From an uncultured Alphaproteobacteria bacterium (GTDB lineage: Bacteria; Pseudomonadota; Alphaproteobacteria; RF32; CAG-239): 64,000 bases of DNA. The notes below the pieces were generated by a model. The model had not been told where the DNA came from and did no database searches. It worked only from the letters and a program-made list of their open reading frames with translations. Both the position numbers and the translations under genes were made by a program. The stretch lies in assembly GCA_934277545.1 (NCBI GenBank), contig CAKQUG010000005.1, positions 33,588 to 97,587 on the forward strand. The letters run 5' to 3'. Position 1 is the stretch's first letter, and every line of letters starts with the position of its first letter. This document shows, in pieces, positions 5,903-54,277 of the stretch.

Positions 5903-8900
5903 TTACCACTTGTAGCGGATATTTCCACCGACACCCCAAGCACTGTAGCTTGAACCGAAGGTATAGTTACCGAACGCTCCGAGCGAGAAGTTTTTAACAA
6001 TTTCAGCGTCGGCGCCGACTTCAATACGTCCCAAAGTTTCGTTTTCAATGGTCTTGTCAAACGTCGTATCGTTAACTTTGACATTGCCGCCGTTGGCGAT
6101 AGTCTGAATTACCGACGGTTTAATATAACCGGTTGTCGGCAGCTGGCGTTCATTGTTAAACTGATATTCATATTTAATACCGGCTTCAAGTTCTATATCG
6201 TGAATGGTATCAAAACTTACTTCCTTGCCGGTTGAATCTTTGATGTCATCAAATTTGATATAGTCATAAGTAGCCTTAATTGATGGAGTCAAAACCGAAC
6301 GCTGCGAGGTTTTAATATCATAGCCGATTTCAGCCTGCGCGCCTAAATTCAGTCCGTCGGTTGAAGCGCTGACGCCGTTGTCAGCCTTTATATCAGCACT
6401 TTGCATACCTCCGTAAACCGCGCCGCTCATAAACAGGTCGCCGAAATATTGACGATAGTAAGCACCGCCTAAAACGCTGGTAATATCCAATTCACTGCCA
6501 TAGTTGGAAAGAATATCACCCTCGCCTTTGCCGCTGTTTTCATAAGTGCCGTCGCGGTAAGAACCGAAGATTCCGAACTGGCTGGAAATGTTGAACTGGT
6601 GGTCATAGCCAAAGTCAACTCCGTACATTTTAACATCGGTTTCAACCGGCTTGTCAAACGTGCCGGAACGATATACCGGAGTAGCCCAAACGCTGTCTTT
6701 ACCGCCCATATCACGGAAGTTGCAGACTTTGTAGTTGCATTCATCACGATAGCAGTTGCAGCTGCCTTTATCCAAACGTCCGACATTAAACAGCAGCGAA
6801 CGGCTTTGTTCAATCGCCGAACGAGGCAAATCAATATAGGCGATAACCTCGGGGCTCAAAAACTTAGTGCGATAGAAATACCAGTCGTTAACCATTCCGT
6901 TTTCATCATGGCCGATACCGATTTCATAAATATTGCTGCTGGCTTTGGAAACAAACGTATAATCAGCCAAAGACTGCTCGGCTTGAGTTTGCGCAAAATA
7001 AATACGGTCATCAATACCCAGTTTCAAGTTTGTCGCATTGTCAAACGCAATATTGGTGGTTCCGTAAATCTTATCGTTTACAATAATGCGATCGGCCTTC
7101 AAGTTCGGATTATCCACATCAATGCGGATAGTACCGTTTTCGCTTTGCACCGTGTTGATGGAAAAGTCTGTCAGCACACCGTCGCCTAAATTCAGCAGGC
7201 CGGCATTTTTAAGAGTATTTGCCAAATTTTTGCTGGCAGTACCGTCGTTTGCCTTGTAGTTAATTGTTGAACCGCTGAAAATATCAAAATTGTTATTAGT
7301 CAGGCTATCGCCGTCATCCAAGTTCAGATAAGAGCCGGAATTAAGATTTACCACCGTGTTTTTAAGATTGAGCGTCGGCTCGTAATCTATGTATCCGGTT
7401 TTGCCGATATTTAATTGCGTGTTGGCAATATTATAGACACCGGTGCCGGCAAAAGTCGAGTTAAGAATAATTTGCGACTGCGAACTGTTTACCGCTTGCG
7501 GCAAAACCGCGCTGCCAACCGACATTGTGCCCAAAATCAAATTCGGAGAATCGCCGGTAATGGTAATTGTGCCAAGGTTATAAACATCATCCGCCGTAGT
7601 GTTGAACACCAGCTTCGCCGTGTCGGACAAAGTAAAATTCATATCTCCGGCCGTTTCATTATAAATGGCTCCGCCCAAACCGCCGGTTGCGCTGTTGCCG
7701 TCAAAAGTCAAAGACGTGTCTTTTTTCAGGCCGGCATTAAACACAGCATGACCGGAATTATATACCGCGCCGCCTTTTGCCGCTTTGTTAGCGCTGAAAT
7801 TTATGCTTGCCGTATTGGTTACATTATTGGTTTGCAAAGTGATTTTGCCCAAGTTATAAATCGCTCCGCCGTTTTCTCCGGCTGCGTTGCGCGCAAACTG
7901 CACAGTTCCGTTATTGCCGACCGCCAATTCAATGTTGCCAAACTCATAAGTTCCGGAGGTTTGGTCTAAGTTACCGGCGTTTGCCCAAGCACCACCGTTA
8001 ACTCCGGCCGTGTTATCGCTGAAAGTAAGCTCATAACCGTCCGAAACCTTAAAAGTCATACCGTCTTCATCGGCATAGTTATACATTACACCGCCGTATT
8101 TGTTTGCTTTGTTTCCGCTGAAAGCAATATTTCCGCCGGTAGCATTCACGGTTAAACGGGAAATTTCACCGTCCGGGTTGTTAGTGCCGTTTCCGCTTGC
8201 CGAATTTGCCAAAGCACCACCCAAATCGGCTTCATTTTGTTTGAATAGTATCGTATGTCCGTTTTCGGCAAAAATATCCAGCTGTCCCAAATTATCATTG
8301 GTTATGGCGCCGCCGATACCTGATCCCGACGCGGATAAAGCCTTGTTGCCGGATAATTCTATATCGGCGTTGCGAGCAATAAGCTGCAAGCGGCTTACAT
8401 GTCCGGAATTATTTTCGCCTTGAGCCCGGTTATAAATGGCACCGCCTTCTGCCCCAACTCCAGGATTGGCAGAAGCGCTGATAACCTGGTTGTTTTTAAA
8501 TGAACTGTCAATAATTTCGCTGAGCGGAGAAGTATTTTCGCCGGCTGCCGTAGCATTGGCAAACGCACCGCCGTAAGACACTCCGGTTTGCGATTCCGCA
8601 CGGGCGTAGTTGTTTTCAAACGTGGCTCCGCTGATGGTTATTTTTCCTTCATTATAGACAGCGCCGCCATAAACATTGTTGGTGTCGTTAACGGCATAGT
8701 TGTTGCTGAAAGTCGCACCACTGACCGAAGCGACACCGGTCAAACCATTGCCCAACGCACCGCCTTTAACCACGACACTGCCGTTAGCATGGTTGCCGTC
8801 AAAGACCAATCCGCCGTCGGTTGCTGTTAAAGTTCCGTCATTATAAAAAGCACCGCCGAACACGCCGGTATTTGTTGTTGTGCCGACGCCTTGCAGGCTG

Positions 8901-10186
8901 TTGTCGGAAAACAAAGTGTTGCCGGTAAGGGTATAGGAACCGCCCTGTGCGTTATAAACGGCGCCACCGTATGCGGTTGCAGCTTCGGCATAGTTATTGC
9001 TGAAATTATTTTCATCGGCGGTATAAGTACCGCTGTTGGAAACCGCGCCGCCTTTTGCCGTGGAGGTTGCTTTGCTGTAATTGTTTGCGAAAACACTGCC
9101 GGAAACAGAAATAACGCCGTTATTATAAACAGCGCCACCCTCGCCCAATTCGTCGCCGGCCACATAGTTGCCGCTAAAGTTGGTACTTCCATTGTTGGTT
9201 ATGGTAAAATTGCCGGTAACGCCGTTTTCAATTCCGTTATAAACCGCTCCGCCCTGAGCTGTTGTTCCTTTGGCAAAGTTAGATTTAAAGACATCATTTT
9301 CCGAAATGAACGTGCTGCTGTTATAAACTGCGCCGCCCATAGCTTTTTCGGTAGTCTTTCCCACAAACTGCGTTAAAAAAGCGTTGGTAGAAGAAGTTTC
9401 GTTTGCTGCATAATTGCCGACATATTGGTTGTTTTTAGACAGCAAATAGCCTTTATCCGTATTATCCAAAGCAAAGTTAGAAACCGCACCGCCGGAAATT
9501 GTTTTTTCGCCCATTACATAGTTTTTAACAAATTTGCTGTTGCTGATAACATTATCCTGATTATTGCTGTAATTGGCAATCGCACCGGACGTAATCATTC
9601 CGGTCGGATTATTGGCGCTGGCACTATTGTTTTCAAAAGTGGTGTTTGTTATTTTTATAAGTGGCTGAGTTCCGATTTCATCTTCATCGCCAACCGCAAA
9701 AACACCGCCGCCGACCTGATTCATTAAAGCGCGGGTATTGTGCTTGTTAGAGATGATAACGCCGCCGGTTACTTCCGTAATTTGTCCGGTACCAAAATCA
9801 TATTTGTAACCGGTATAAACATTGCCGTTATCAAATATCCAAGCGCCGGCCTTAAACTGAGCCGGGTCGGAACCTTCCGAAAACAATTCCTGCGTGTAGT
9901 TTCTGTCAATATACAAAGTGCCGATAGACTGCTTGTTGGCTCCGGTATCGGTACTGATGGTGGTTCCCATATAATCTTTGAGATAACCGATAGTAGTTTG
10001 ACCTTTAGAATCCAAATTCCCCGAATTACTGGCATTGGCAGTCTGGTTCGGTGTCCAATCGTCGGCAACAGCCGGAGCTGCCGCCATAAAGAAAGCAGCC
10101 GCCAAATTCAGCAACAAGCATTTTTTCAAAACACTGCGGTATTGCGCATTTAACAAACCTAAAGTATGACTATGTGCCTTCATCAT
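5903..10186 (-). CDS. Very large autotransporter (type Va) outer-membrane protein with a Pmp-like repetitive passenger domain
   Basis: 1427 aa. The extended signal peptide is MMKAHSHTLGLLNAQYRSVLKKCLLLNLAAAFFMAAAPAVA. The passenger carries dozens of GGAVYN / GGAI(Y/T)N and F(x)xN tetrapeptide repeats (Pmp-type). The C-terminal roughly 300 aa look like a beta-barrel translocator and end ...GNIRYKW with an aromatic last residue. The RBS AGGAGA precedes ATG 10186. Confidence 0.85.
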   Translation of the reverse strand: MMKAHSHTLGLLNAQYRSVLKKCLLLNLAAAFFMAAAPAVADDWTPNQTANASNSGNLDSKGQTTIGYLKDYMGTTISTDTGANKQSIGTLYIDRNYTQELFSEGSDPAQFKAGAWIFDNGNVYTGYKYDFGTGQITEVTGGVIISNKHNTRALMNQVGGGVFAVGDEDEIGTQPLIKITNTTFENNSASANNPTGMITSGAIANYSNNQDNVISNSKFVKNYVMGEKTISGGAVSNFALDNTDKGYLLSKNNQYVGNYAANETSSTNAFLTQFVGKTTEKAMGGAVYNSSTFISENDVFKSNFAKGTTAQGGAVYNGIENGVTGNFTITNNGSTNFSGNYVAGDELGEGGAVYNNGVISVSGSVFANNYSKATSTAKGGAVSNSGTYTADENNFSNNYAEAATAYGGAVYNAQGGSYTLTGNTLFSDNSLQGVGTTTNTGVFGGAFYNDGTLTATDGGLVFDGNHANGSVVVKGGALGNGLTGVASVSGATFSNNYAVNDTNNVYGGAVYNEGKITISGATFENNYARAESQTGVSYGGAFANATAAGENTSPLSEIIDSSFKNNQVISASANPGVGAEGGAIYNRAQGENNSGHVSRLQLIARNADIELSGNKALSASGSGIGGAITNDNLGQLDIFAENGHTILFKQNEADLGGALANSASGNGTNNPDGEISRLTVNATGGNIAFSGNKANKYGGVMYNYADEDGMTFKVSDGYELTFSDNTAGVNGGAWANAGNLDQTSGTYEFGNIELAVGNNGTVQFARNAAGENGGAIYNLGKITLQTNNVTNTASINFSANKAAKGGAVYNSGHAVFNAGLKKDTSLTFDGNSATGGLGGAIYNETAGDMNFTLSDTAKLVFNTTADDVYNLGTITITGDSPNLILGTMSVGSAVLPQAVNSSQSQIILNSTFAGTGVYNIANTQLNIGKTGYIDYEPTLNLKNTVVNLNSGSYLNLDDGDSLTNNNFDIFSGSTINYKANDGTASKNLANTLKNAGLLNLGDGVLTDFSINTVQSENGTIRIDVDNPNLKADRIIVNDKIYGTTNIAFDNATNLKLGIDDRIYFAQTQAEQSLADYTFVSKASSNIYEIGIGHDENGMVNDWYFYRTKFLSPEVIAYIDLPRSAIEQSRSLLFNVGRLDKGSCNCYRDECNYKVCNFRDMGGKDSVWATPVYRSGTFDKPVETDVKMYGVDFGYDHQFNISSQFGIFGSYRDGTYENSGKGEGDILSNYGSELDITSVLGGAYYRQYFGDLFMSGAVYGGMQSADIKADNGVSASTDGLNLGAQAEIGYDIKTSQRSVLTPSIKATYDYIKFDDIKDSTGKEVSFDTIHDIELEAGIKYEYQFNNERQLPTTGYIKPSVIQTIANGGNVKVNDTTFDKTIENETLGRIEVGADAEIVKNFSLGAFGNYTFGSSYSAWGVGGNIRYKW

Positions 10187-22093: not shown

Positions 22094-22345
22094 ACGGCTC
22101 GGCTTATTTGGCACATAGCCTTATTTAGCCGACATCCATCCCCCAGAACAGAAGTCGGCATACAATTATTTAAGTCGCTTATGCTCAAAGCGACTACATA
22201 TATTTCAAAGGGTTGTCACGCCCTGACAAGCTCTCACTTATCTGTCTTAATGTTAGCTGTAGTTTTATAAAAAGTAAAGCTGATTTTTGTTTGACTTTTA
22301 AACTTCCCTCGCCTAAGCTGGAAAAAATTTTAAAAAGGGTTGAAA

Positions 22346-23086
22346 ATGCGTTATAAAATTACGGTGGAATATGAGGGAACTCACTTGGTTGGCTGGCAAA
22401 AACAAAAAGACGGCGCCAGTGCGCAAGAATTTTTGGAAAAAGCTATTTTAGGCTTTTCACACCAAGCAACCGAAGTATTCGGCGCCGGGCGCACCGACGC
22501 CGGTGTTCACGCTTTGGCGCAAGTGGCGCATTTTGACTTAAATCTGGATTTAAGCGAATATAAAATAATGGAAAGTCTGAACGCTTTGCTGCGCGAGTTG
22601 CAAGCGCCGGTCAGCGTGTTGCAGGCAGAAAAAGTGTCTGACGATTTTCACGCCCGTTTTTCCGCGGTCGGACGCGGCTATATTTATCGAATTTTAAACC
22701 GCCGCGGTCCCAGTCCTTTGCTAATGGACAGAGTATGGCGCGTACCATATCCGCTGGATATTGAAGCTATGCGACAAGGCGCTAAATATTTGCTGGGATA
22801 CCATGATTTCAGTTCATTCCGCGGAGCCGGCTGTCAGGCGAAAAGTCCGGTAAAAACTTTAGATAAACTTGATATAGAACGCAACGGAGATGAAATTATT
22901 TTTACCGTGGAGGCACGCTCGTTTATTTATCATCAGGTGCGCAATATGGTCGGTACCTTGAAAGAAGTCGGCAACGGACGCCTTAAACCGGAAGACGTCA
23001 AAACCATTTTAGAGGCTTGCGACCGCACTAAAGCCGGTATCAGCGCCCCCGCCTGCGGATTATATTTGAATAAAGTTATGTACTGA
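22346..23086 (+). CDS. truA: tRNA pseudouridine(38-40) synthase
   Basis: MRYKITVEYEGTHLVGWQKQ...GAGRTDAGVHALAQVAHFD; the catalytic Asp lies in RTDAGVHA. ATG 22346 is preferred over the TTG at 22340. Confidence 0.92.
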   Translation: MRYKITVEYEGTHLVGWQKQKDGASAQEFLEKAILGFSHQATEVFGAGRTDAGVHALAQVAHFDLNLDLSEYKIMESLNALLRELQAPVSVLQAEKVSDDFHARFSAVGRGYIYRILNRRGPSPLLMDRVWRVPYPLDIEAMRQGAKYLLGYHDFSSFRGAGCQAKSPVKTLDKLDIERNGDEIIFTVEARSFIYHQVRNMVGTLKEVGNGRLKPEDVKTILEACDRTKAGISAPACGLYLNKVMY

Positions 23087-43862: not shown

Positions 43863-44576
43863 ATGTTATACATTTTAACAGGTTTTGTATTCGGCTGTTT
43901 AATTCCCTATTTGGCACGTCGTCTCGGCAAGTTGATGCCGGCAACCATGGGCTATATTCTGCTCAAAATTTTTATCCCTCAGCACTATATGCCGTGGAGC
44001 AAACTGAAAAATGATTTTGAATATATGCAATTATTCAAAAGATATATGATGAGAAGTTTGGGCTGGGGTATTTTTTGCGCCGCCGTTACATATTTATTTG
44101 CCGTAAATTTTGACCCGTATTACACCGGCTGGTACATTGCTTTTTTATGGATTATGCTGCTGCTTGTGGAAATTGACAAGCGCTTTATGCTGCTGCCTGA
44201 TGTTTTGACTTTACCACTATTGGTGCTGGGTTTCGGCTATGCGACAATTAACGGCGTGTGGCTGGACACGATTGACCCGCAGCTTATAAGCAATGCACAA
44301 AACAGTTTTATGGGTGCCTGCGCCGGATATTTAATGCCGGTTGTCGCCAGTATGTTTTTAGTTTGGAAATACCCGGACGCATTCGGCGGCGGCGACATTA
44401 AACTTTTGGCGGCTATCGGCGCTTGGGTCGGCTTGGGACCTATTTCCTACATTTTGCTCGGTTCCTGCATTTTGTTTGCTCTCGGCTGCTTAATCAAAAA
44501 GCAAAGAGTCGGTCCGTTCGGTCCTTCCATTGTCTACGCCACTCTGCTGGTTTGCATTTTCTTGTTCGGAATCTAG
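43863..44576 (+). CDS. Type IV prepilin peptidase (A24 family)
   Basis: 237 aa and polytopic. Both catalytic Asp motifs are present: EIDKRFMLLPD and GGGDIKLLAAIGAWVG. No N-terminal Cys-rich Zn module. Confidence 0.8.
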   Translation: MLYILTGFVFGCLIPYLARRLGKLMPATMGYILLKIFIPQHYMPWSKLKNDFEYMQLFKRYMMRSLGWGIFCAAVTYLFAVNFDPYYTGWYIAFLWIMLLLVEIDKRFMLLPDVLTLPLLVLGFGYATINGVWLDTIDPQLISNAQNSFMGACAGYLMPVVASMFLVWKYPDAFGGGDIKLLAAIGAWVGLGPISYILLGSCILFALGCLIKKQRVGPFGPSIVYATLLVCIFLFGI

Positions 44577-44595
44577 CAAAAATCAGGTGATTGCA

Positions 44596-46419
44596 ATGAC
44601 TGATCAAACAAAAATAATCTTGAAACATAATATAGAATTATCTTTATCGTCAAATGCGCCCGCAACAGATGTAGCAGCGTTGATTTGTGATTTTTTCGCA
44701 AATTATTATAAAGATGATGATGACCGCCAATACGCGCTATTAATATTTAATGAAATTTATAAAAAATATAGTAAAGATGAATTACCTGCTATTTTTTTTA
44801 GTGAGTTTGTAAGACTTTATGTCAATATTCTGCGTGAAAATTCATCAATGATGTCACCAGATACTATTGATTTTATCTGCTCTAATATAATTGACTTTGC
44901 AGATATTGCTATCAAAAAAAATCCTAAAAGCAATGTACCTTATCTTTATCTTGCCAGATTTTATAATTTAAACATCAACTCAAAACTGCTTAACGAGCTG
45001 GATACAAAAAAATTAACTAAACAATATTTTCTTAAAGCTATTAACCTTGGCAGTAAAAATGCTGTAAAAGAATACAATTCTTTTTTGAACACTCTTAGCG
45101 CCGCAACATCTTTTGATTTTCTAAACGTGAATATAAACCTAAACAAAATTGTTGATGCCCTCTTAAACAATATTGATAAAGACCGTTTTTCATTATTGCT
45201 TTATGGACCTGAAGGCAGCGGTAAAAGTATATTTGCTCAGCATTTGATAGGAAAAATAAAAGATTTTTACAATCAACACAATTTAACTTTCAAAATTGTA
45301 AAATTATCTCCGTTTAACTTTGATGAGAATTTTAAAAATATATCAGAAACAACTACTTTGATACAAATAGACGATAATTTCGGAATTGCTCTAAAAGATA
45401 TAAAACACTGCTATTTACTGCTTAATAAAATAAAAAAACAAACCAACAATATCATTGTTTCCATAAACTCTCTGGATAATCTGCCCAAAGATTTTATTTC
45501 TAATTTTTTGTTTAAGATAAAATTCAATTATATGAATCAAGAACAAGAAGAAGCCGCTTATGAGCTATTTTTCAACAACAAAGCCCCTGAAGAGTTAAAA
45601 TCTATAAGCGGAATGGTTATCAGTGATTTTAACCGTATTCAAAAAACTTGTTCTGTTCTAAATATAAATAAAAATGCCGATATTCTTAATATGATAAAAG
45701 ATGAAATGTTTTTCAAATTTGGCAATAACAACTACAACAAGCCGATTATTCAGTTTGATTCTAAAATGATAAATTGCGATACAGATGTTGAAGTTTTGAT
45801 TGAAAAACTGAAATATTATGACCCGAAATATCCGTTTTCGATTTTAGTTTATGGTCCGCCGGGAACTGGTAAAAGTTATTTTTTGCGTTATTTAGCTCAA
45901 AACATTGGTATTTCAACCGTTGAAAAGAAACCAGCAGAGATGTTTTCTAAATATCAAGGACAACCGGCAAAAGAAGTTTTAAATATCTTTAAAGAAGCTC
46001 AAGACAAAAATGCCATGCTTATTATTGATGAAATAGAAGGCATTATTTCTGAACGCGGCAAAGATTCCGGCGAAAATAAATGGAAAAGCGATATGACAAA
46101 CTCCTTTTTATCTTCATTAGAAAGTTGCACCGTACCGTTTGCCGGCACCTCAAACCATTTAAAATTTGTTGACAAGGCCATTTTACGGCGGTTTGTCTTT
46201 AAACTGCATTTTGATTATTTAACTACAATGCAGGCAATTTATGCCTTTGAAAAAATATTTGGTTTAATTGCACCATATGAAAAAATATCAAAATTAAAGC
46301 ATCTAACCAGCGGTGATTTTTCTATAGTTAAACGAAAAGCTCTGATTTTGGGCTGCATAAACGACGCAGAAAAATTGTGTGATATGCTAAACGATGAAAT
46401 AGCTAAAAAAGAATTATAA
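44596..46419 (+). CDS. Tandem AAA+ ATPase with an N-terminal helical (Sel1/TPR-like) region; strongly AT-shifted composition
   Basis: About 607 aa from ATG 44596, after AGGTGA. The first, degenerate ATPase module has LLLYGPEGSGKS and hhhhDD (LIQIDD). The second is a classical AAA module: ILVYGPPGTGKSYFLRYLA (Walker A), MLIIDEIEGI (Walker B) and ILRRF (second region of homology). The listed ORF from 44530 is an upstream extension that overlaps the peptidase gene. Confidence 0.75.
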   Translation: MTDQTKIILKHNIELSLSSNAPATDVAALICDFFANYYKDDDDRQYALLIFNEIYKKYSKDELPAIFFSEFVRLYVNILRENSSMMSPDTIDFICSNIIDFADIAIKKNPKSNVPYLYLARFYNLNINSKLLNELDTKKLTKQYFLKAINLGSKNAVKEYNSFLNTLSAATSFDFLNVNINLNKIVDALLNNIDKDRFSLLLYGPEGSGKSIFAQHLIGKIKDFYNQHNLTFKIVKLSPFNFDENFKNISETTTLIQIDDNFGIALKDIKHCYLLLNKIKKQTNNIIVSINSLDNLPKDFISNFLFKIKFNYMNQEQEEAAYELFFNNKAPEELKSISGMVISDFNRIQKTCSVLNINKNADILNMIKDEMFFKFGNNNYNKPIIQFDSKMINCDTDVEVLIEKLKYYDPKYPFSILVYGPPGTGKSYFLRYLAQNIGISTVEKKPAEMFSKYQGQPAKEVLNIFKEAQDKNAMLIIDEIEGIISERGKDSGENKWKSDMTNSFLSSLESCTVPFAGTSNHLKFVDKAILRRFVFKLHFDYLTTMQAIYAFEKIFGLIAPYEKISKLKHLTSGDFSIVKRKALILGCINDAEKLCDMLNDEIAKKEL

Positions 46420-48513: not shown

Positions 48514-48730
48514 ATATTTGGCACAATATGTTTCAGGCGGTTTGAATTAGAATTAACAAAAATAGAGAAAAGAATGATAAAATATGCTTAACCTAAAGAC
48601 GTTACACAAAATTAACAACGCCGAAAGTAAAATTATAAATTACCGCTAAGTATATAGCGGTAATTTACTGAAATTTGAACACATCTGAAAGTAAAGAAGC
48701 CGCTTTTTCAAGCGGCTTGCTGTTATTTTA

Positions 48731-51154
48731 TTATTGTTGCGTTTCACCTTTTTTGAGAGCATAGAACTGATTTTCTTGTGCCACTTTTTCGCCGGAGTGA
48801 ACCACTATCTGCGGGAACGGAATTTCTATTCCCTCGTCAATAAAGCGTTTGTTGATGGCAAAACGCAAATCGCTCGGCACAATCCAACCTTTCCAAATAT
48901 CATTGGTATAGCAACGCAGTTCAAAGTTCAAACTGCTGTCGGCAAAATCTTTGAACAACACATAAGGCGCCGGATTTTTCATAACATATTTATGAGCAAG
49001 CGCACATTCCAACAAAATTTTACGCACTTTTTCCACATCCGAACCATAAGCCACCCCAACGGAAATGCTTTGGCGCGAGATATTGTCGCCGTGGGTCAAA
49101 TTTACGATAGAGCTGGAAAGCAAAGTCGCGTTAGGCACAATCACGCTGGTGCGGTTAAAACTTTCCATTTCGGTTGAACGAATGTTGATTTGCTTAATTT
49201 TACCTTCCGTACCGTTCATAATTACCCAATCGCCCACCTTAAACGGACGCTCAAACAAAATGATGACACCTGAAACAAGGTTCTTAATTACGTCCTGCAA
49301 ACCAAAACCGATACCTACCGACAAAGCACCGGCGATGAATGCGAGGTTAGTTAAATCTACACCGACGGCGATAATGGCCAGTAAGCACGAGATTATAAAC
49401 CCGACGAAGCTGATACCTGAAATTAAAGAGTGCTTAATGCCGTCGTCAATATCCATATTGTTAAAGACATTGGTAGCTAAATGTTTTTTAATCAGCTTAA
49501 CCACGGTTAAAGACACAAAGAACACCAAAATACCAAAGGCAATGGCAATAAGTGAAATTTGCACGCCGCCGATTTTGAAACCGAATAACAGTTTTTTACC
49601 CATTTGCAGCATAAAATCGCCCGGTAAACCCCACAGATTAAGCAAAGTGAAAATAAAGGTTAAAACCAAAATAGGATTTATAAAAGAGGTTATCCAAAAT
49701 TCTATTTTGCTGACATTGCGTTTAGTTACTTTTATAGATTTCATCCACGGGCTAGCGAGCACCAAACGCTTTAATATATCAATAAAGGCATGGCGGAATA
49801 ATTCAAAAATACCGAATATAACCATGGATAAAATCAGATTGCGTAAAATAAATGAAGAAAGCTCAGGGTAACCGATTAAAGACAAACCGAATGCTGTTGC
49901 TAACAACAAATTACTGGCAACCATAATTTTAAAACCGCTGTCCAAGGAATCGTGATCTTCTTCGTTTTCTTCGATATCTTCAGCTGTAATTCCTTTCATC
50001 TCACGATAAGAATCTACAGCAATTTTAATTATCCATATCAGGAAAAATGCTTTAACCGCACATGAAATCATCGTCAAAAAGTGTATGGTATCAATGGAAT
50101 ATTTTGCTTTTTGAGCAACAGTAACCTGTATAAGAGCAATGGCGTTGCATATAATAAACAAGAATATCACTCTGGTAAAGCGCAGAGCTTGGTCGTTTGG
50201 AATGTTAAACAATCGCCATTGCGGATGATTCGGCGCAAAAGTAACACGAGAAATAGTTGCCTCGATAATCGCCAAAAAAGAGGCAAAACCGCTTATCATC
50301 AAAACATGTCCCAACAGACTGTCTCCAAAAATTTTAGTGCTGACCATCCAAATCATGCAGGCGCCGACAAAGGCATCCGGAATCAAACCTCGAGCAATAG
50401 CGACAGCTATGGCGGCAACAATTTTACGGCTGAAATGCGGCAATTCAATGTCGTCTTTATATCCCCAGTGCGTTAAAATGTATTTACGCAGAATAATAGC
50501 GACAGCTAACGCGGCAATCAAAATCAGCGCCATGGAAACAATGCTCAAAATTGTGTAACTGCGGTCTTCGGCCGGTATTCCCTGATACCAGTCAACCGGC
50601 GATTTGGTAATATTCCAAAAGAAAATGGCATATAATTTCAAGCTGTTAAAGAAGACCATAGGGTTAATCAAGGCGGACTGTTTGGTGATTAAATCTCCGT
50701 AAACACGTTTGCTGCGAGCATTCAAAACCTGAGCGGTCAAGTCTTCTATTTTAACAATCAGTAAATCCGCTTCTTTCAGCACACGGTCTTCGGCGGTTAG
50801 CTGTTTAGTCAAGTCAGCACGCTGTCTGGTTATTACCTTGTCTTCTGTAGCGCCTTCTTTAGGTTCTCCAAGGGCATCAAGCTGTTTTTGGATATATTTT
50901 ATATCCTTGTCTAAATCTTTGCGGGTACCGCTGATTTGTGCTTCTTGTTCGCTTAAATAACTGACATAACTGTTTATGTTATCTTCAGTTAAATTTTCTT
51001 TTTTCAACTCATTGTCAATTTGTTCCAGTTTTTTATTTATCTTATTAAAATCTATGGAATTTTTAGAATCCGCACCGTCAGCGGCTTGCAGATTACCGGC
51101 CAGTAATACAATGGTAAAAAAAGCAATAAAAACAGCTTTAAAAAGTTTAGCCAT
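48731..51154 (-). CDS. MscK/KefA-like mechanosensitive channel (large MscS family)
   Basis: 807 aa. Signal peptide, a periplasmic coiled-coil N-terminal domain, about 11 transmembrane helices, and the C-terminal MscS domain (GDWVIMNGTEGKIKQINIRSTEME...). A terminator hairpin aagccgct-ttttcaa-gcggctt lies just downstream at about 48695-48722. Confidence 0.85.
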   Translation of the reverse strand: MAKLFKAVFIAFFTIVLLAGNLQAADGADSKNSIDFNKINKKLEQIDNELKKENLTEDNINSYVSYLSEQEAQISGTRKDLDKDIKYIQKQLDALGEPKEGATEDKVITRQRADLTKQLTAEDRVLKEADLLIVKIEDLTAQVLNARSKRVYGDLITKQSALINPMVFFNSLKLYAIFFWNITKSPVDWYQGIPAEDRSYTILSIVSMALILIAALAVAIILRKYILTHWGYKDDIELPHFSRKIVAAIAVAIARGLIPDAFVGACMIWMVSTKIFGDSLLGHVLMISGFASFLAIIEATISRVTFAPNHPQWRLFNIPNDQALRFTRVIFLFIICNAIALIQVTVAQKAKYSIDTIHFLTMISCAVKAFFLIWIIKIAVDSYREMKGITAEDIEENEEDHDSLDSGFKIMVASNLLLATAFGLSLIGYPELSSFILRNLILSMVIFGIFELFRHAFIDILKRLVLASPWMKSIKVTKRNVSKIEFWITSFINPILVLTFIFTLLNLWGLPGDFMLQMGKKLLFGFKIGGVQISLIAIAFGILVFFVSLTVVKLIKKHLATNVFNNMDIDDGIKHSLISGISFVGFIISCLLAIIAVGVDLTNLAFIAGALSVGIGFGLQDVIKNLVSGVIILFERPFKVGDWVIMNGTEGKIKQINIRSTEMESFNRTSVIVPNATLLSSSIVNLTHGDNISRQSISVGVAYGSDVEKVRKILLECALAHKYVMKNPAPYVLFKDFADSSLNFELRCYTNDIWKGWIVPSDLRFAINKRFIDEGIEIPFPQIVVHSGEKVAQENQFYALKKGETQQ

Positions 51155-51163
51155 GGATTTTTC

Positions 51164-52168
51164 CTATTTTTTTAACAAAATTTTCAAAATGTTATAAGCG
51201 TTTTGAGCGGTACCGGCGCGCAAATCATCGGCCACGCACCAAAAACTGAAACCGTTTTCAACTGAAATGTCCTGACGCAAGCGGCTGATGTAAATATCGC
51301 TTTCGCCCTGAACATCGTTAATTGAAACATAGCCGCAGTCAACGTGTTTATCAAAAACCACCACGCCTTTGGTATCACGCATAAGGTTGCGAATCTGGTC
51401 TATATCCACATCATCGGCACATTCAACATTAACAAATTCGCCAATACCGATAAAAGCAGGAACAACGGCGCAATTAGCGTGTACTTTTATATTTCCGCCT
51501 AAAATTTTTTTAATTTCAACATTCGCTGCCCACTCATATTTTGTTTCATCGCCTATAAATTCGCCAACTTGCGGCAAAACGTTAAAGGCAATTTGTTTAT
51601 GAAAGATTTTTTCATCATCAACAATAGGTTCGTTCATAAAAATTTTACGAGTTTGTGCAAAAAGCTCATCCATCGCCTCACGGCCATAAATGGAGGCAGA
51701 CATATAAGTGTTAATCACAAAACGTTTAATTTTATGATTTGCCGCAACTTTTTGCAAAGGCAACATAATTTGCGTTACTTGCGGTGACGGAACGGCAATA
51801 ATTCCTTTTTTGGCATCGGAAATTTTTTCATCATTCAAGCCGGCAATAATTAACGGAACATCCGAATCGGCTGAATGAGCCATAGAACAATCTATTACCA
51901 TAACTTTTTTGGACGAAGCATGAGGAATGTAACGTTTGGCAACTTCTTCAGAAGTAGCAAACACCGCGATTTTAACTGATGAAAAATCAAAATCGTCTAA
52001 ATTCCAAACATCCATATCAACATCTTCGCCGTATGAAACCTGAGTACCGAGCGGACTGTTTGTATCTACCGCAAAAATACTGTCGGCAGATATGCCGTTT
52101 TCTTCCAAAATATTTAATATTTCACGACCTAAACTATTATTTACACCAACAATGGCAATTTTATTCAT
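51164..52168 (-). CDS. Aspartate-semialdehyde dehydrogenase family protein (short Asd type) in which the catalytic residues appear substituted
   Basis: 334 aa. Clear blockwise similarity to the short Asd type is visible by eye: HKQIAFNVLPQVGEF, FVINTYMSASIYGREAMDELFAQT and ENGFSFWCVADDLRAGTAQNAYNI. Where Asd has GATGxVG, this protein has GVNNSLG. Where Asd has the catalytic NPNCSTIQ, this protein has VPSPQVTQ, so the Cys is absent. Where Asd has QTGHSES, this protein has FIGIGEF, so the His is absent. Confidence 0.6.
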   Translation of the reverse strand: MNKIAIVGVNNSLGREILNILEENGISADSIFAVDTNSPLGTQVSYGEDVDMDVWNLDDFDFSSVKIAVFATSEEVAKRYIPHASSKKVMVIDCSMAHSADSDVPLIIAGLNDEKISDAKKGIIAVPSPQVTQIMLPLQKVAANHKIKRFVINTYMSASIYGREAMDELFAQTRKIFMNEPIVDDEKIFHKQIAFNVLPQVGEFIGDETKYEWAANVEIKKILGGNIKVHANCAVVPAFIGIGEFVNVECADDVDIDQIRNLMRDTKGVVVFDKHVDCGYVSINDVQGESDIYISRLRQDISVENGFSFWCVADDLRAGTAQNAYNILKILLKK

Positions 52169-52262
52169 AATGAGCCTCTTAAAAAAAACTTTTATTCATG
52201 CCCGTATGATAAAACAAAAATGTTTACAAATAAATAAAATTTACTCTAAAAAATATAAAATA

Positions 52263-53678
52263 TCAGCGTTCAACAGACTTTTGCAATGAAGATAAAGCTG
52301 TTAAACCTTTTTGTTGAGTTTGAGTAATGGTGTTGCCCTCTTTTTTTACCGGTTCATTTATAGCCGCTGAAATACGTCCGCTTAGTTGCAGCATTTTTTT
52401 AGGATTTGACAGTGCTTTAGCCAATGTTTTTTGATCTTTTTTCTGCGACCCCGGCAAAGCATCGCTTATTTGCTTACCCTCATCCAAACTGAATCCTGTT
52501 CTTTCTTTAGTTATTTTATTTGCCTCAATCATAAAATTTTCTGAAAGTTGAAAATCTTCTTTAGGCAGATACTGAGAAAGTTTACCAACTTTTATACCGA
52601 GTTTTTGTATTTCCGGATTTTGATCAAAAGAATCAAACATTTTGTCTTTGCGTTGAGAATAGTCCTGCTCATTTCCAATTAACAAACCGGCAGCATTTAC
52701 GTCATTTGATAAAGAAACTCGTCTCATAGTTGAAGGAACTTGTTCTTTCATATAAATTTCCAGATAATTTTCCTTCCACATTTTTATTGTACCATTTACC
52801 ATAAGCTCTTTTGCTTCATGACTATCTGGATTAAGGCCTCCGGCGATTGCTTCTTTGTAAAACGAAAACTCTCCACCCAATACATCAAATTCTTTAAGTG
52901 CTTCTTCTTTAGATGCTCCCGCAGATAAAGATTCTTTATATTTATGATTTGCAACAACCAGCTCAGCCACATTTGCCGAACATTCATCCCAACAATTTAA
53001 CTTTCCATATTCTACGGCATTCAAGCCCGGTGCATACGCATTATTTAAATCATTTATTTTATGTTGATTTTCGTGAGTTATAAAACTAATTTCTTCTGAA
53101 GGTGTCGCGGTAAAACGGTTATATTTTTCTATAATTTGCTGCGCTTGTTCAGGAGTATAATTTTTACTTTCTTTCAATTCATTAAGTTCTTCTGGTGTTA
53201 AATTAAACGAATTTATTATAATATTTTTTTCAGTAGATGAATATCCTCCCACTGTAACGCCACCCTTCTCATTAATATCGTCTAAAAAAGATTCCAAATC
53301 TTTTTTGTGCGTTCCGTCTTTTTCAGCATTGTTAAATGCTTGTTGCTGTTCTTTGCTATATTCTTTTTTAGCTGTTTTAGTAGAAGCCTGCATATTCTTG
53401 TCACATACCGCATTATCAACAATCGTATATTGTTCTCCATTTTCTCTGACAAATTCAAACGCTTTGCCATTTTCTAAAGAAATTACAAGGGTATTACTTT
53501 TTCCTTTTTGGTAGTCTTTAACTCTTTGTAATGCCTCTTTCTTTCGTGCATCTATTTGCTCTTTAGTATAGCTTTGTGCTTGAGCGGCTGTCGGAGATGC
53601 CAACACTAATGCTAAACTAAGCGTTGTACATTTAGATTTCAAAAACTTATTCATCGATTCAAGCGACATTACATCCAC
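52263..53678 (-). CDS. Hypothetical secreted protein with an HExxH motif (possible zinc metallopeptidase)
   Basis: 471 aa. Signal peptide (MNKFLKSKCTTLSLALVLASPTAAQA); the true start may be one of the internal Met codons at 53672 or 53654. The single HExxH motif is FITHENQHKIN. The protein is Lys/Glu-rich with no other recognizable domain. Confidence 0.45.
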   Translation of the reverse strand: MDVMSLESMNKFLKSKCTTLSLALVLASPTAAQAQSYTKEQIDARKKEALQRVKDYQKGKSNTLVISLENGKAFEFVRENGEQYTIVDNAVCDKNMQASTKTAKKEYSKEQQQAFNNAEKDGTHKKDLESFLDDINEKGGVTVGGYSSTEKNIIINSFNLTPEELNELKESKNYTPEQAQQIIEKYNRFTATPSEEISFITHENQHKINDLNNAYAPGLNAVEYGKLNCWDECSANVAELVVANHKYKESLSAGASKEEALKEFDVLGGEFSFYKEAIAGGLNPDSHEAKELMVNGTIKMWKENYLEIYMKEQVPSTMRRVSLSNDVNAAGLLIGNEQDYSQRKDKMFDSFDQNPEIQKLGIKVGKLSQYLPKEDFQLSENFMIEANKITKERTGFSLDEGKQISDALPGSQKKDQKTLAKALSNPKKMLQLSGRISAAINEPVKKEGNTITQTQQKGLTALSSLQKSVER

Positions 53679-53744
53679 CCTTTTAATATGCTATTAAGTA
53701 AGTATAACAGATTTATAAACTTTATGCAATCAGTTATAAATCAT

Positions 53745-53783
53745 AAAACGCAAAAACAGCACTCGTTTTCACGAGTGCTGTTA
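53745..53783 (-). terminator. Rho-independent terminator for the 53804-54277 gene
   Basis: Hairpin aacagcactcg-ttttc-acgagtgctgtt with an A-run on the plus strand, which is a T-run for the minus-strand transcript. Confidence 0.7.
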
Positions 53784-53803
53784 AAAATTTGCTTAGAAGC
53801 TGA

Positions 53804-54277
53804 TTAGAAATCCATGTCTTCAGTACCAGCCTCACTGTCGCAAACGGCAGCTACCACTTCCAGGCTGAGCGGGGAAAGACGCTTGCGTGGCTTGCGAGGA
53901 GCAACTGATAACGCTTGATAACGCTTGAAGCCGTTGACCGTGTCCTTAAGTCCATAGGTTACCCCCTTGATGCGGAAATTGCCGAGAACCTCAGTCTCCG
54001 AAGCAATAACCGACGAGTCGACAATCTTGGCAGAACCTGTCTGGATATCCACGATAGCGTTGAGGTTCTTTGAATGCTTGATGAACGCGTAGAACGGCAC
54101 AGAGGCATTCTTCTTGAACATCGGCACGCGCAGTACGATTTTTACCATCTGGGGCTGAGCTTCGCACGAAGAAAGGTCCACGAGATTAGGATTCTTCTTG
54201 TTAAAATCTTCAAAAGCCTTGTTAGCCTTGATGTTAGCAACCATAGTGTTCAACTTCTTTTCAGCAATAGTACTCAT
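53804..54277 (-). CDS. Hypothetical 157-aa protein with GC-shifted composition (probable horizontal acquisition)
   Basis: MSTIAEKKLNTMVANIKANKAFEDF...KRYQALSVAPRKPRKRLSPLSLEVVAAVCDSEAGTEDMDF. This ORF is visibly GC-richer (about high 40s %) than the surrounding roughly 40% and uses different codons (GAC, CTC, CGC, AAC). It has its own AT-rich promoter region (54278-54370) and its own terminator. Confidence 0.55.
   Translation of the reverse strand: MSTIAEKKLNTMVANIKANKAFEDFNKKNPNLVDLSSCEAQPQMVKIVLRVPMFKKNASVPFYAFIKHSKNLNAIVDIQTGSAKIVDSSVIASETEVLGNFRIKGVTYGLKDTVNGFKRYQALSVAPRKPRKRLSPLSLEVVAAVCDSEAGTEDMDF

Follow-up and report, generated by a model that had tools for sequence, protein, structure and literature searches.

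Why would a bacterium maintain, under strong selection, a gene whose product resembles a biosynthetic dehydrogenase along its whole length yet appears to have lost every residue needed for the reaction, and with which partner could such a protein work? This question is raised by a gene in a 64,000-nucleotide stretch of DNA (hereafter the window; contig CAKQUG010000005.1 of assembly GCA_934277545.1, positions 33,588 to 97,587 of the forward strand) from an uncultured alphaproteobacterium of the RF32 lineage (CAG-239). The gene encodes a homologue of aspartate-semialdehyde dehydrogenase (Asd), referred to here as the Asd-like protein, and is followed on the same strand by a gene for a mechanosensitive channel of the MscS family. 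Judged from its sequence, the protein qualifies as a pseudoenzyme, since it is clearly homologous to an active enzyme, lacks the essential residues and is encoded by a gene under purifying selection. The informative part of its context is the channel gene, which is its one invariant neighbor. The locus comprises the following features:

51164..52168, minus strand: Asd-like pseudoenzyme gene (334 amino acids, aa), with a Rossmann-type N-domain and an Asd dimerization-type C-domain; catalytic, substrate and cofactor residues all replaced
52175..52180 (read 52180-52175), minus strand: AAGAGG Shine-Dalgarno sequence (ribosome-binding site), 6 nt ahead of the start codon of the Asd-like gene
51155..51166, minus strand: gene junction, with the TAG stop codon at 51166-51164, a 9-nt spacer and the channel ATG at 51154
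48731..51154, minus strand: gene for an MscS-family mechanosensitive channel of the MscK/MscM type (807 aa), the constant partner downstream
48697..48718, minus strand: terminator-like hairpin with a 9-bp stem (5 GC pairs), 13 nt after the channel stop codon

Fold and active-site residues of the Asd-like protein

The Asd-like open reading frame (ORF) begins with an ATG and encodes a full-length, two-domain protein in which Pfam detects the Semialdhyde_dh domain (PF01118, E 3.2e-15) at residues 3-118 and the Semialdhyde_dhC domain (PF02774, E 2.3e-27) at residues 144-317. HMMER matched the protein to the solved Asd structures of Vibrio cholerae (Asd II, 2qz9; E 3.4e-48), Streptococcus pneumoniae (2gyy) and Porphyromonas gingivalis (8juo). 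The top Foldseek matches of an AlphaFold model computed from an input alignment of 32 family sequences (predicted local distance difference test score, pLDDT, 79; predicted template modeling score, pTM, 0.79) were V. cholerae Asd II, with a template modeling (TM) score of 0.82, and the USG-1 homologue of Pseudomonas aeruginosa (2hjs), with a TM score of 0.80. The initial annotation, made by eye from the letters of the sequence, had described a full-length, in-frame ORF whose product aligns block for block with short-type Asd. This description held: the six peptides that it quoted are all present in the translation, and Pfam, HMMER and Foldseek agree on the homology, with the Asd fold predicted to be retained in the model. 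Among the NCBIfam models, the protein scores above the cutoff of the equivalog NF011456 (262 against 223 bits) and below that of TIGR01296 (239 against 324.2 bits). The most invariant segment of the family, residues 159-204 (SxYGKEAMDELFNQTRKIFMNEP...IAFNVLPQVGEF), has the lowest AlphaFold confidence (pLDDT 31-41), which may reflect an interface that needs a partner or an artifact of the shallow alignment.

The HMMER alignments to the solved structures place GVNNSLG of the Asd-like protein on the Rossmann loop GATGAVG, VPSPQVTQ on the active-site motif NPNCSTIQ, with Pro129 at the position of the catalytic Cys, and FIGIGEF on F(Y/-)GH(A/S)E, with Ile242 at the position of the catalytic His. 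The same register was recovered with MAFFT against 48-64 canonical Asd sequences and with Foldseek, and the by-eye alignment was, therefore, not shifted. Nor does the protein belong to a different Rossmann family, given the TM score of 0.82 to V. cholerae Asd II and the Pfam and HMMER matches; taken together, we regard these two sources of error as having a vanishingly small probability. The replacements noted by eye in the Rossmann loop and at the catalytic Cys and His were thus real, and the loss proved to be wider. The residues T10, G11, R99, N128, C129, Q156, G160, E211, K214, R235 and H242, which are 98-100% conserved in canonical Asd (48 representatives), are all replaced. We take their roles to be those established for R103, N135, C136, Q163, E243, K246, R270 and H277 of the Haemophilus influenzae enzyme, mutant structures of which were among the Foldseek matches of the model.

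The replacements extend across the family. The catalytic Cys column, 100% Cys in canonical Asd, holds Pro, Ala or Ser in 121/121 family sequences; the catalytic His column holds Ile, Ala, Val, Asn, Ser or Cys and in none of them His; and no Cys or His stands at or beside its catalytic column in any of these sequences. R99 has become Ser (variable in the family), Q156 Met, E211 Tyr (variable), K214 Ala, and R235 Val, Phe or Ile. In the Rossmann loop, position 10 is Thr, Met, Asn, Ala or Gln and position 11, the middle Gly of GxxGxxG, is Asn, Thr, Glu, Gln, Ser or Ala, while the SGAG motif now reads S-(V/I/L)-Y-G, with its first Gly replaced. Residues of the old pocket are mainly hydrophobic or small, and variable. 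Kept are the scaffold residues G8, G14, D93, N112, S159, G162, E168, L169, IAFN.LP, E212, R296, R298, W310 and D314. On this evidence we are highly confident that the protein is dead as an aspartate-semialdehyde dehydrogenase (ASADH). Lacking both Cys and His, it could not form the thioester intermediate; with both Arg, the Glu and the Lys gone, it would not bind aspartyl phosphate; and the binding of nicotinamide adenine dinucleotide phosphate (NADP) has almost certainly been lost, because neither the middle Gly of GxxGxxG nor the SGAG glycine is left. Since the replacement residues differ between family members at most of the positions, there is no sign of a new catalytic constraint.

A species-genome scan with one genome per species identified relatives of the Asd-like gene in 229 genomes, 80 of which were retrieved and inspected. 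The protein database contains at least 120 clusters at 62-90% identity to the protein; those with names are called aspartate-semialdehyde dehydrogenase and come from metagenome-assembled genomes (MAGs) labeled Alphaproteobacteria bacterium, and a sister cluster includes a protein of 'Proteobacteria bacterium CAG:495'. The retrieved genomes are human-gut, rumen, horse and chicken MAGs, nearly all of them titled Alphaproteobacteria, Proteobacteria or Rhodospirillaceae, with 'Candidatus Scatocola faecipullorum' (NCBI: Rhodospirillales) among them. These organisms probably make up the lineage that is named RF32 in GTDB. All 80 species have an intact ORF (61-94% identity), 332-344 aa long in 79 of them. 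Using our own implementation of the Nei-Gojobori method, we obtained dN/dS values of 0.03-0.04 at dS 0.2-1.0 for the Asd-like gene, which are equal to or lower than those of the adjoining channel gene; the Asd-like gene is also the better conserved of the two. Such strong purifying selection across orthologs, together with the intact ORFs, supports the proposal in the initial annotation that the gene is maintained for a non-catalytic or different function. Five 'cleanbin' MAGs titled Bacteroidaceae, [Ruminococcus] gnavus, Eubacteriales or Lachnospiraceae (loci L011, L013, L014, L017 and L078) also carry the gene pair, at 62-94% protein identity to the Asd-like gene of the window (93-94% in four of them); these bins are probably mislabeled or chimeric.

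Conservation within the family peaks at residues 166-210 and 271-315 (0.85-0.91), in the C-terminal, dimerization-type domain, and the Rossmann loop and the blocks of the former active site rank among the least conserved. Canonical Asd differs in that its best-conserved 15-residue blocks contain the active-site and cofactor motifs. A set of 33 family-invariant positions, including S128, Y161, H230, N232 and C250, differs from the canonical majority. This pattern is the one expected if selection had moved from the catalytic pocket to an interaction surface, because conservation has shifted, the replaced positions are variable and the N-domain is degenerate in the deepest lineages. It also argues against a new activity that would use the old pocket or a dinucleotide cofactor.

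The channel gene and its pairing with the Asd-like gene

The channel carries the MscS beta and alpha-beta domains at residues 621-778 (PF00924 and PF21082), and its closest solved relatives are Escherichia coli MscK (7uw5, E 6.6e-44) and MscM (E 1.4e-36). Inspection of the sequence further revealed a signal-peptide-like N-terminus, a periplasmic coiled-coil-like region and multiple transmembrane helices. At the junction of the two genes (AAA-TAG-GAAAAATCC-ATG), an AGGA Shine-Dalgarno-like motif of the channel gene (51165-51162) overlaps the stop codon of the Asd-like gene. No terminator-like hairpin lies between the two genes in the window; the only one at the locus follows the channel gene and is likely to mark the end of the transcription unit.

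A gene of the MscS family is located directly downstream of the Asd-like gene, on the same strand, in 80/80 species genomes, and the gap between the two genes is -1 to 65 bp in 79 of these loci. The same pair was found on independent metagenome contigs. No other neighbor is constant, the next commonest (a cmk-like gene) being present in 30/83 sequences. The remaining neighbors are shuffled, and the pair persists over 35-94% identity, with linked mur genes lost or shuffled. The window belongs to a lineage without mur linkage, and groEL is convergent downstream of the pair there. Canonical asd genes served as the control: none of 80 metagenome loci (52 of which have at least 1.5 kb of downstream sequence) had an MscS-core gene within 5 kb, and there was no MscS-type neighbor at the Wolbachia asd locus or at a leuD-leuB-asd locus. 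Fisher's exact test on this contrast gave p = 5e-38.

The pairing extends to four divergent lineages at 35-45% identity (P0123, P0124, P0135 and P0197). In P0124 (41%) and P0135 (38%), the Asd-like gene is followed by a MscS-family gene of 781-807 aa that is 37-40% identical to the channel of the window, and in P0197 (35%), which was predicted from the sequence signature, a 782-aa MscS-family gene follows with a 4-bp overlap. These three lineages have lost G14, and Pfam misses the N-domain in P0135 and P0197. In P0123 (45%; L093:3018-4962 and L094:530-3110), a truncated ORF downstream matches the N-terminal periplasmic domain of the channel (hidden Markov model E 2.5e-20). Immediately upstream of the Asd-like gene of P0123 is a PF00180 (leuB-type) gene, and the neighborhood is of the rimM-trmD-rplS...leuB type; the canonical asd of the leuD-leuB-asd locus (L096) has the same upstream neighbor. 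P0123 also keeps T10, R99, N128, Q156 and E211, having changed the Cys to Ser, the His to Glu and the middle Rossmann Gly to Glu. These features suggest that P0123 is an intermediate form: an alphaproteobacterial asd would first have gained a downstream channel gene and afterwards lost catalysis step by step, whether in place or following a duplication. The arrangement in P0123 fits degeneration in place at least as well as duplication. In a neighbor-joining tree, which is crude, the family and the other paired lineages form a deep clade of their own. A C-domain pattern (H230-x-N232-x-A234, R174, N179, G279, E289 and S308) is invariant in all paired lineages and seldom seen in canonical Asd. 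As a diagnostic signature, H230-x-N232-x-A234 was rejected: it is only enriched in paired lineages, and the canonical P0128, P0193 and P0253 also have H230 and N232.

Directly after the channel gene, and often overlapping it, P0124, P0135 and P0197 encode murL and/or a murD-like ligase; MurL refers here to UDP-MurNAc-L-Ala-L-Glu epimerase domains. The same linkage occurs in about 12 genomes of a subclade at 62-65% identity. Mur-linked loci include L091:6001-11894, L186:2125-8047, L005:8001-12849 and L059, L060, L064, L071, L073 and L076. Because the mur genes follow the pair both in the divergent lineages and in this subclade, the ancestral unit may have been asd-like - msc - (murL) - murD-like, of which only the first two genes are still universally linked.

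Candidate roles of the pseudoenzyme

The explanation that we favor, with modest confidence, is that an Asd-derived pseudoenzyme is co-transcribed and acts together with the channel, most likely as a cytoplasmic accessory or regulatory subunit. Its ancestor would have been a short-type (Asd2/asd_B-like) alphaproteobacterial aspartate-semialdehyde dehydrogenase that kept its fold and scaffold and lost catalysis. The arrangement of the two genes points to co-transcription and probably to translational coupling, and the protein could dock to the channel through its highly conserved C-terminal domain. Co-transcription, physical binding to the channel and any influence on gating or assembly are the parts of this scheme that we infer. 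A role alongside the channel rather than in amino acid synthesis is suggested because the gene is always encoded directly before the channel gene and the catalytic and cofactor residues are lost. We consider a functional coupling of some kind to the channel quite probable; that the protein is a physical subunit is a more tentative proposal, about which we are somewhat doubtful.

Several points weigh against this explanation. Among the homologues listed there is no fusion of the Asd-like protein to a channel, and adjacency shows co-expression, not necessarily a complex. The pairing was inspected in only 80 of the 229 genomes with a relative. Because murL and murD-like genes follow the pair in several lineages, the protein might be tied functionally to cell-envelope synthesis in a wider sense instead of to the channel itself. 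Finally, a new ligand or catalytic site made up of the invariant S128, Y161, H230, N232 and C250 is conceivable.

Ion channels with ancillary subunits of oxidoreductase fold offer a precedent: KefF and KefG associate with KefC and KefB, and Kv-beta, an aldo-keto reductase, with Kv channels. Like them, the Asd-like protein is soluble, has a dehydrogenase ancestry and is encoded together with a channel, and modulation of the channel is proposed here by analogy. Unlike KefF and Kv-beta, which retain cofactor binding, it appears to have lost it, and the folds and channel families differ. On this analogy, an aspartate-pathway enzyme from an envelope operon of the asd - msc - murL - murD-like type might have turned into a dedicated subunit or regulator of a MscK/MscM channel, a more specific and speculative proposal that we consider rather unlikely in full. 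If it were true, the MscS family would have its first known accessory protein, and the operon may couple turgor release to the supply of peptidoglycan precursors. Channels of this family are, to our knowledge, thought to act without dedicated subunits, and we know of no accessory protein described for MscK or MscM, nor did we find one. A channel partner of this kind would add a regulatory layer to MscS-family channels and provide a clear bacterial case of a pseudoenzyme recruited to a membrane channel. For the dead Asd and USG-type proteins as a group, the pairing supplies a concrete, testable lead, because the genes of one large clade, at the least, are firmly linked to that of a mechanosensitive channel.

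The best-surviving alternative, to which we give a minor share of the probability, is a non-catalytic role unrelated to the channel, for example in a regulatory heterodimer with canonical Asd or as a sensor of an aspartate-pathway metabolite. The adjacency would then be a co-expression arrangement or the remnant of an asd-like - msc - murL - murD-like operon. Such a role is compatible with the Asd dimerization domain being the best-conserved part of the protein and with the murL and murD-like genes that follow the pair in P0124, P0135, P0197 and the 62-65% subclade; the position of P0123 after a leuB-type gene, as in the canonical asd of L096, and the overlap of another Cys-less lineage (P0129) with a dapB-like gene also speak for it. 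Yet the pair has been kept across 35-94% identity whereas all other neighbors, the mur genes included, have been lost or shuffled, and no second, canonical Asd was found within 10 kb on either side of the locus in 83 sequences. Sensing of aspartyl phosphate or aspartate semialdehyde (ASA) is, moreover, unlikely because the residues that bind either metabolite are gone.

The surroundings of the gene were also searched for the aspartate pathway. In the window, scans against protein families recovered genes for housekeeping and envelope functions but no enzyme of the aspartate pathway; at the thresholds used, several ORFs remained without a match. With tblastn, E. coli ThrA/B/C, DapA/B/D/E/F, LysA and LysC had no match at the paired loci in 1.55 Mb of sequence (the window and the sampled loci), a sample too shallow to establish absence; the only match was the DapB-like gene beside P0129, an unrelated Cys-less lineage. 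Clusters for ectoine, an osmolyte derived from ASA, sometimes carry mscS, but no ectoine families appeared in the window scans or in the Pfam lists of the neighbors, although no dedicated search was made. The initial annotation had seen in the dead Asd a sign that the diaminopimelate/lysine/methionine branch is remodeled in this organism; we found nothing that ties the Asd-like gene to such a remodeling.

An improbable alternative is that the protein is still an enzyme, with a new site and a new chemistry that involves the family-invariant residues and acts, for example, on an osmolyte or a cell-wall precursor. The very strong purifying selection and the 33 invariant non-canonical positions would be in keeping with it, and the wider GAPDH-like superfamily includes proteins that function in the absence of the Cys (PMC12041015). 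The dinucleotide loop is, however, degenerate and variable at positions 10 and 11, with G14 lost in three divergent lineages and the N-domain undetected by Pfam in two of them, and the old-pocket residues are hydrophobic and variable, with no alternative cofactor motif evident. The last alternative, a decaying asd remnant under relaxed selection in a reduced gut-symbiont genome (an incipient pseudogene), could draw on the loss of every catalytic residue and on the lack of aspartate-pathway genes in the 1.55 Mb sampled around the loci, but is extremely improbable and was excluded, since the gene has a dN/dS of 0.03-0.04, an intact ORF in all 80 species, better conservation than the channel gene, a strong ribosome-binding site of its own and a product with the fold kept.

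Known Asd-like proteins, annotation and other features of the window

The Asd-like protein shares its length and two-domain fold (TM score 0.82) with short-type Asd (Asd2/asd_B, TIGR01296; 2qz9 and 2gyy), as well as G8, G14, D93, N112, S159, G162, E168-L169, IAFN.LP, E212, R296-x-R298-x-D300, W310 and D314. Its identity to canonical Asd is 31-45%, the nearest canonical sequence with a source name being Wolbachia Asd. Unlike the short-type enzymes, it is without the Cys, His, Asn, Gln, both Arg, Glu and Lys, and two glycines, the middle one of GxxGxxG and the first one of SGAG, are missing too. It also falls below the TIGR01296 cutoff and has a different gene context. USG-1/Usg proteins (E. coli b2319 and P. 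aeruginosa 2hjs; fold match at a TM score of 0.80) are likewise Asd homologues without the catalytic Cys. E. coli Usg, however, has Ser at the Cys position and keeps both GATGAVG and the His, and its gene lies in pdxB-usg-truA with no adjoining channel gene, whereas the Asd-like gene adjoins one. Membership in USG-1 was rejected on score (161.8 against 273 bits and 174 against 284 bits, for the cutoffs of NF005957 and NF004224), the protein being closer to the Asd2-type model, on motif pattern and on context: the known arrangements are pdxB-usg-truA or asd-usg-fimV-truA, and truA of the window (22340..23086) is about 28 kb from the Asd-like gene.

The initial annotation had also held that a dead Asd paralog would be unusual, which overstated the case. 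The Cys is missing from 61 of the 133 nearest 50%-identity cluster representatives, and 43 have neither the Cys nor the His; E. coli Usg has the Ser just mentioned; and a 2025 review describes non-functional Asd2/USG branches, on which "no more information is available" (PMC12041015). Not all Cys-less proteins are channel-linked: P0145 follows trmD-rplS and has no channel gene. Another, P0129 (L097:380-1839), lacks the Cys and His (VPSPQAIM and FIGEGMA), retains an intact GAAGMMG loop and overlaps by 4 bp a DapB-like gene whose product is 34% identical to E. coli DapB. Beyond the one sentence in the review, our literature search, which covered pseudo-Asd, USG-1, RF32 metabolism and Asd+MscS operons, yielded no specific information and no link between Asd-like genes and MscS-family channels. 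Thus, the dead-enzyme aspect is known in outline, and what appears to be new is that the gene is paired so strictly and specifically with that of a mechanosensitive channel.

As for the channel, its C-terminal 250-360 residues align with those of E. coli MscK (KefA) and MscM (YjeP), with which it shares, by inspection, a long N-terminal periplasmic region and a multi-transmembrane architecture. At about 800 aa, it is shorter than these two proteins (1,100-1,120 aa).

NCBI and JGI name the family members 'aspartate-semialdehyde dehydrogenase', or 'aspartate-semialdehyde dehydrogenase 2' for the CAG:495 relative, which is likely to be a systematic mis-annotation. Because the protein passes the NCBIfam equivalog cutoff and carries this name in the databases, an ASADH step would be assigned to these gut and rumen bacteria in metabolic reconstructions, although the Asd-like protein could not, as far as its residues tell, perform it.

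Other parts of the window drew attention as well. Between eptA and the Asd-like gene (52263-54277, minus strand), there are two low-GC ORFs (about 35% GC) of 471 and 157 aa, neither with a Pfam, NCBIfam or PADLOC match; the longer one has a signal-peptide-like N-terminus by eye. Neither occurs in the 90%-identical relatives L001-L003, where one 168-aa ORF takes their place, and a lineage-specific insertion is the probable explanation. A 629-aa protein with two P-loop regions (44530-46419, plus strand, with 43863-44576, plus strand) is encoded where the GC content of the window is lowest (33.5%). Its second AAA domain resembles IetA of the Ietl defense system (PADLOC E 4.6e-22); no IetS-like partner was identified for it. 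Finally, the gene at 5903-10186 on the minus strand encodes an autotransporter of 1,427 aa that ends in a beta-barrel domain (TIGR01414, E 4e-29), and proteins of this type are typical of host-associated Gram-negative bacteria.

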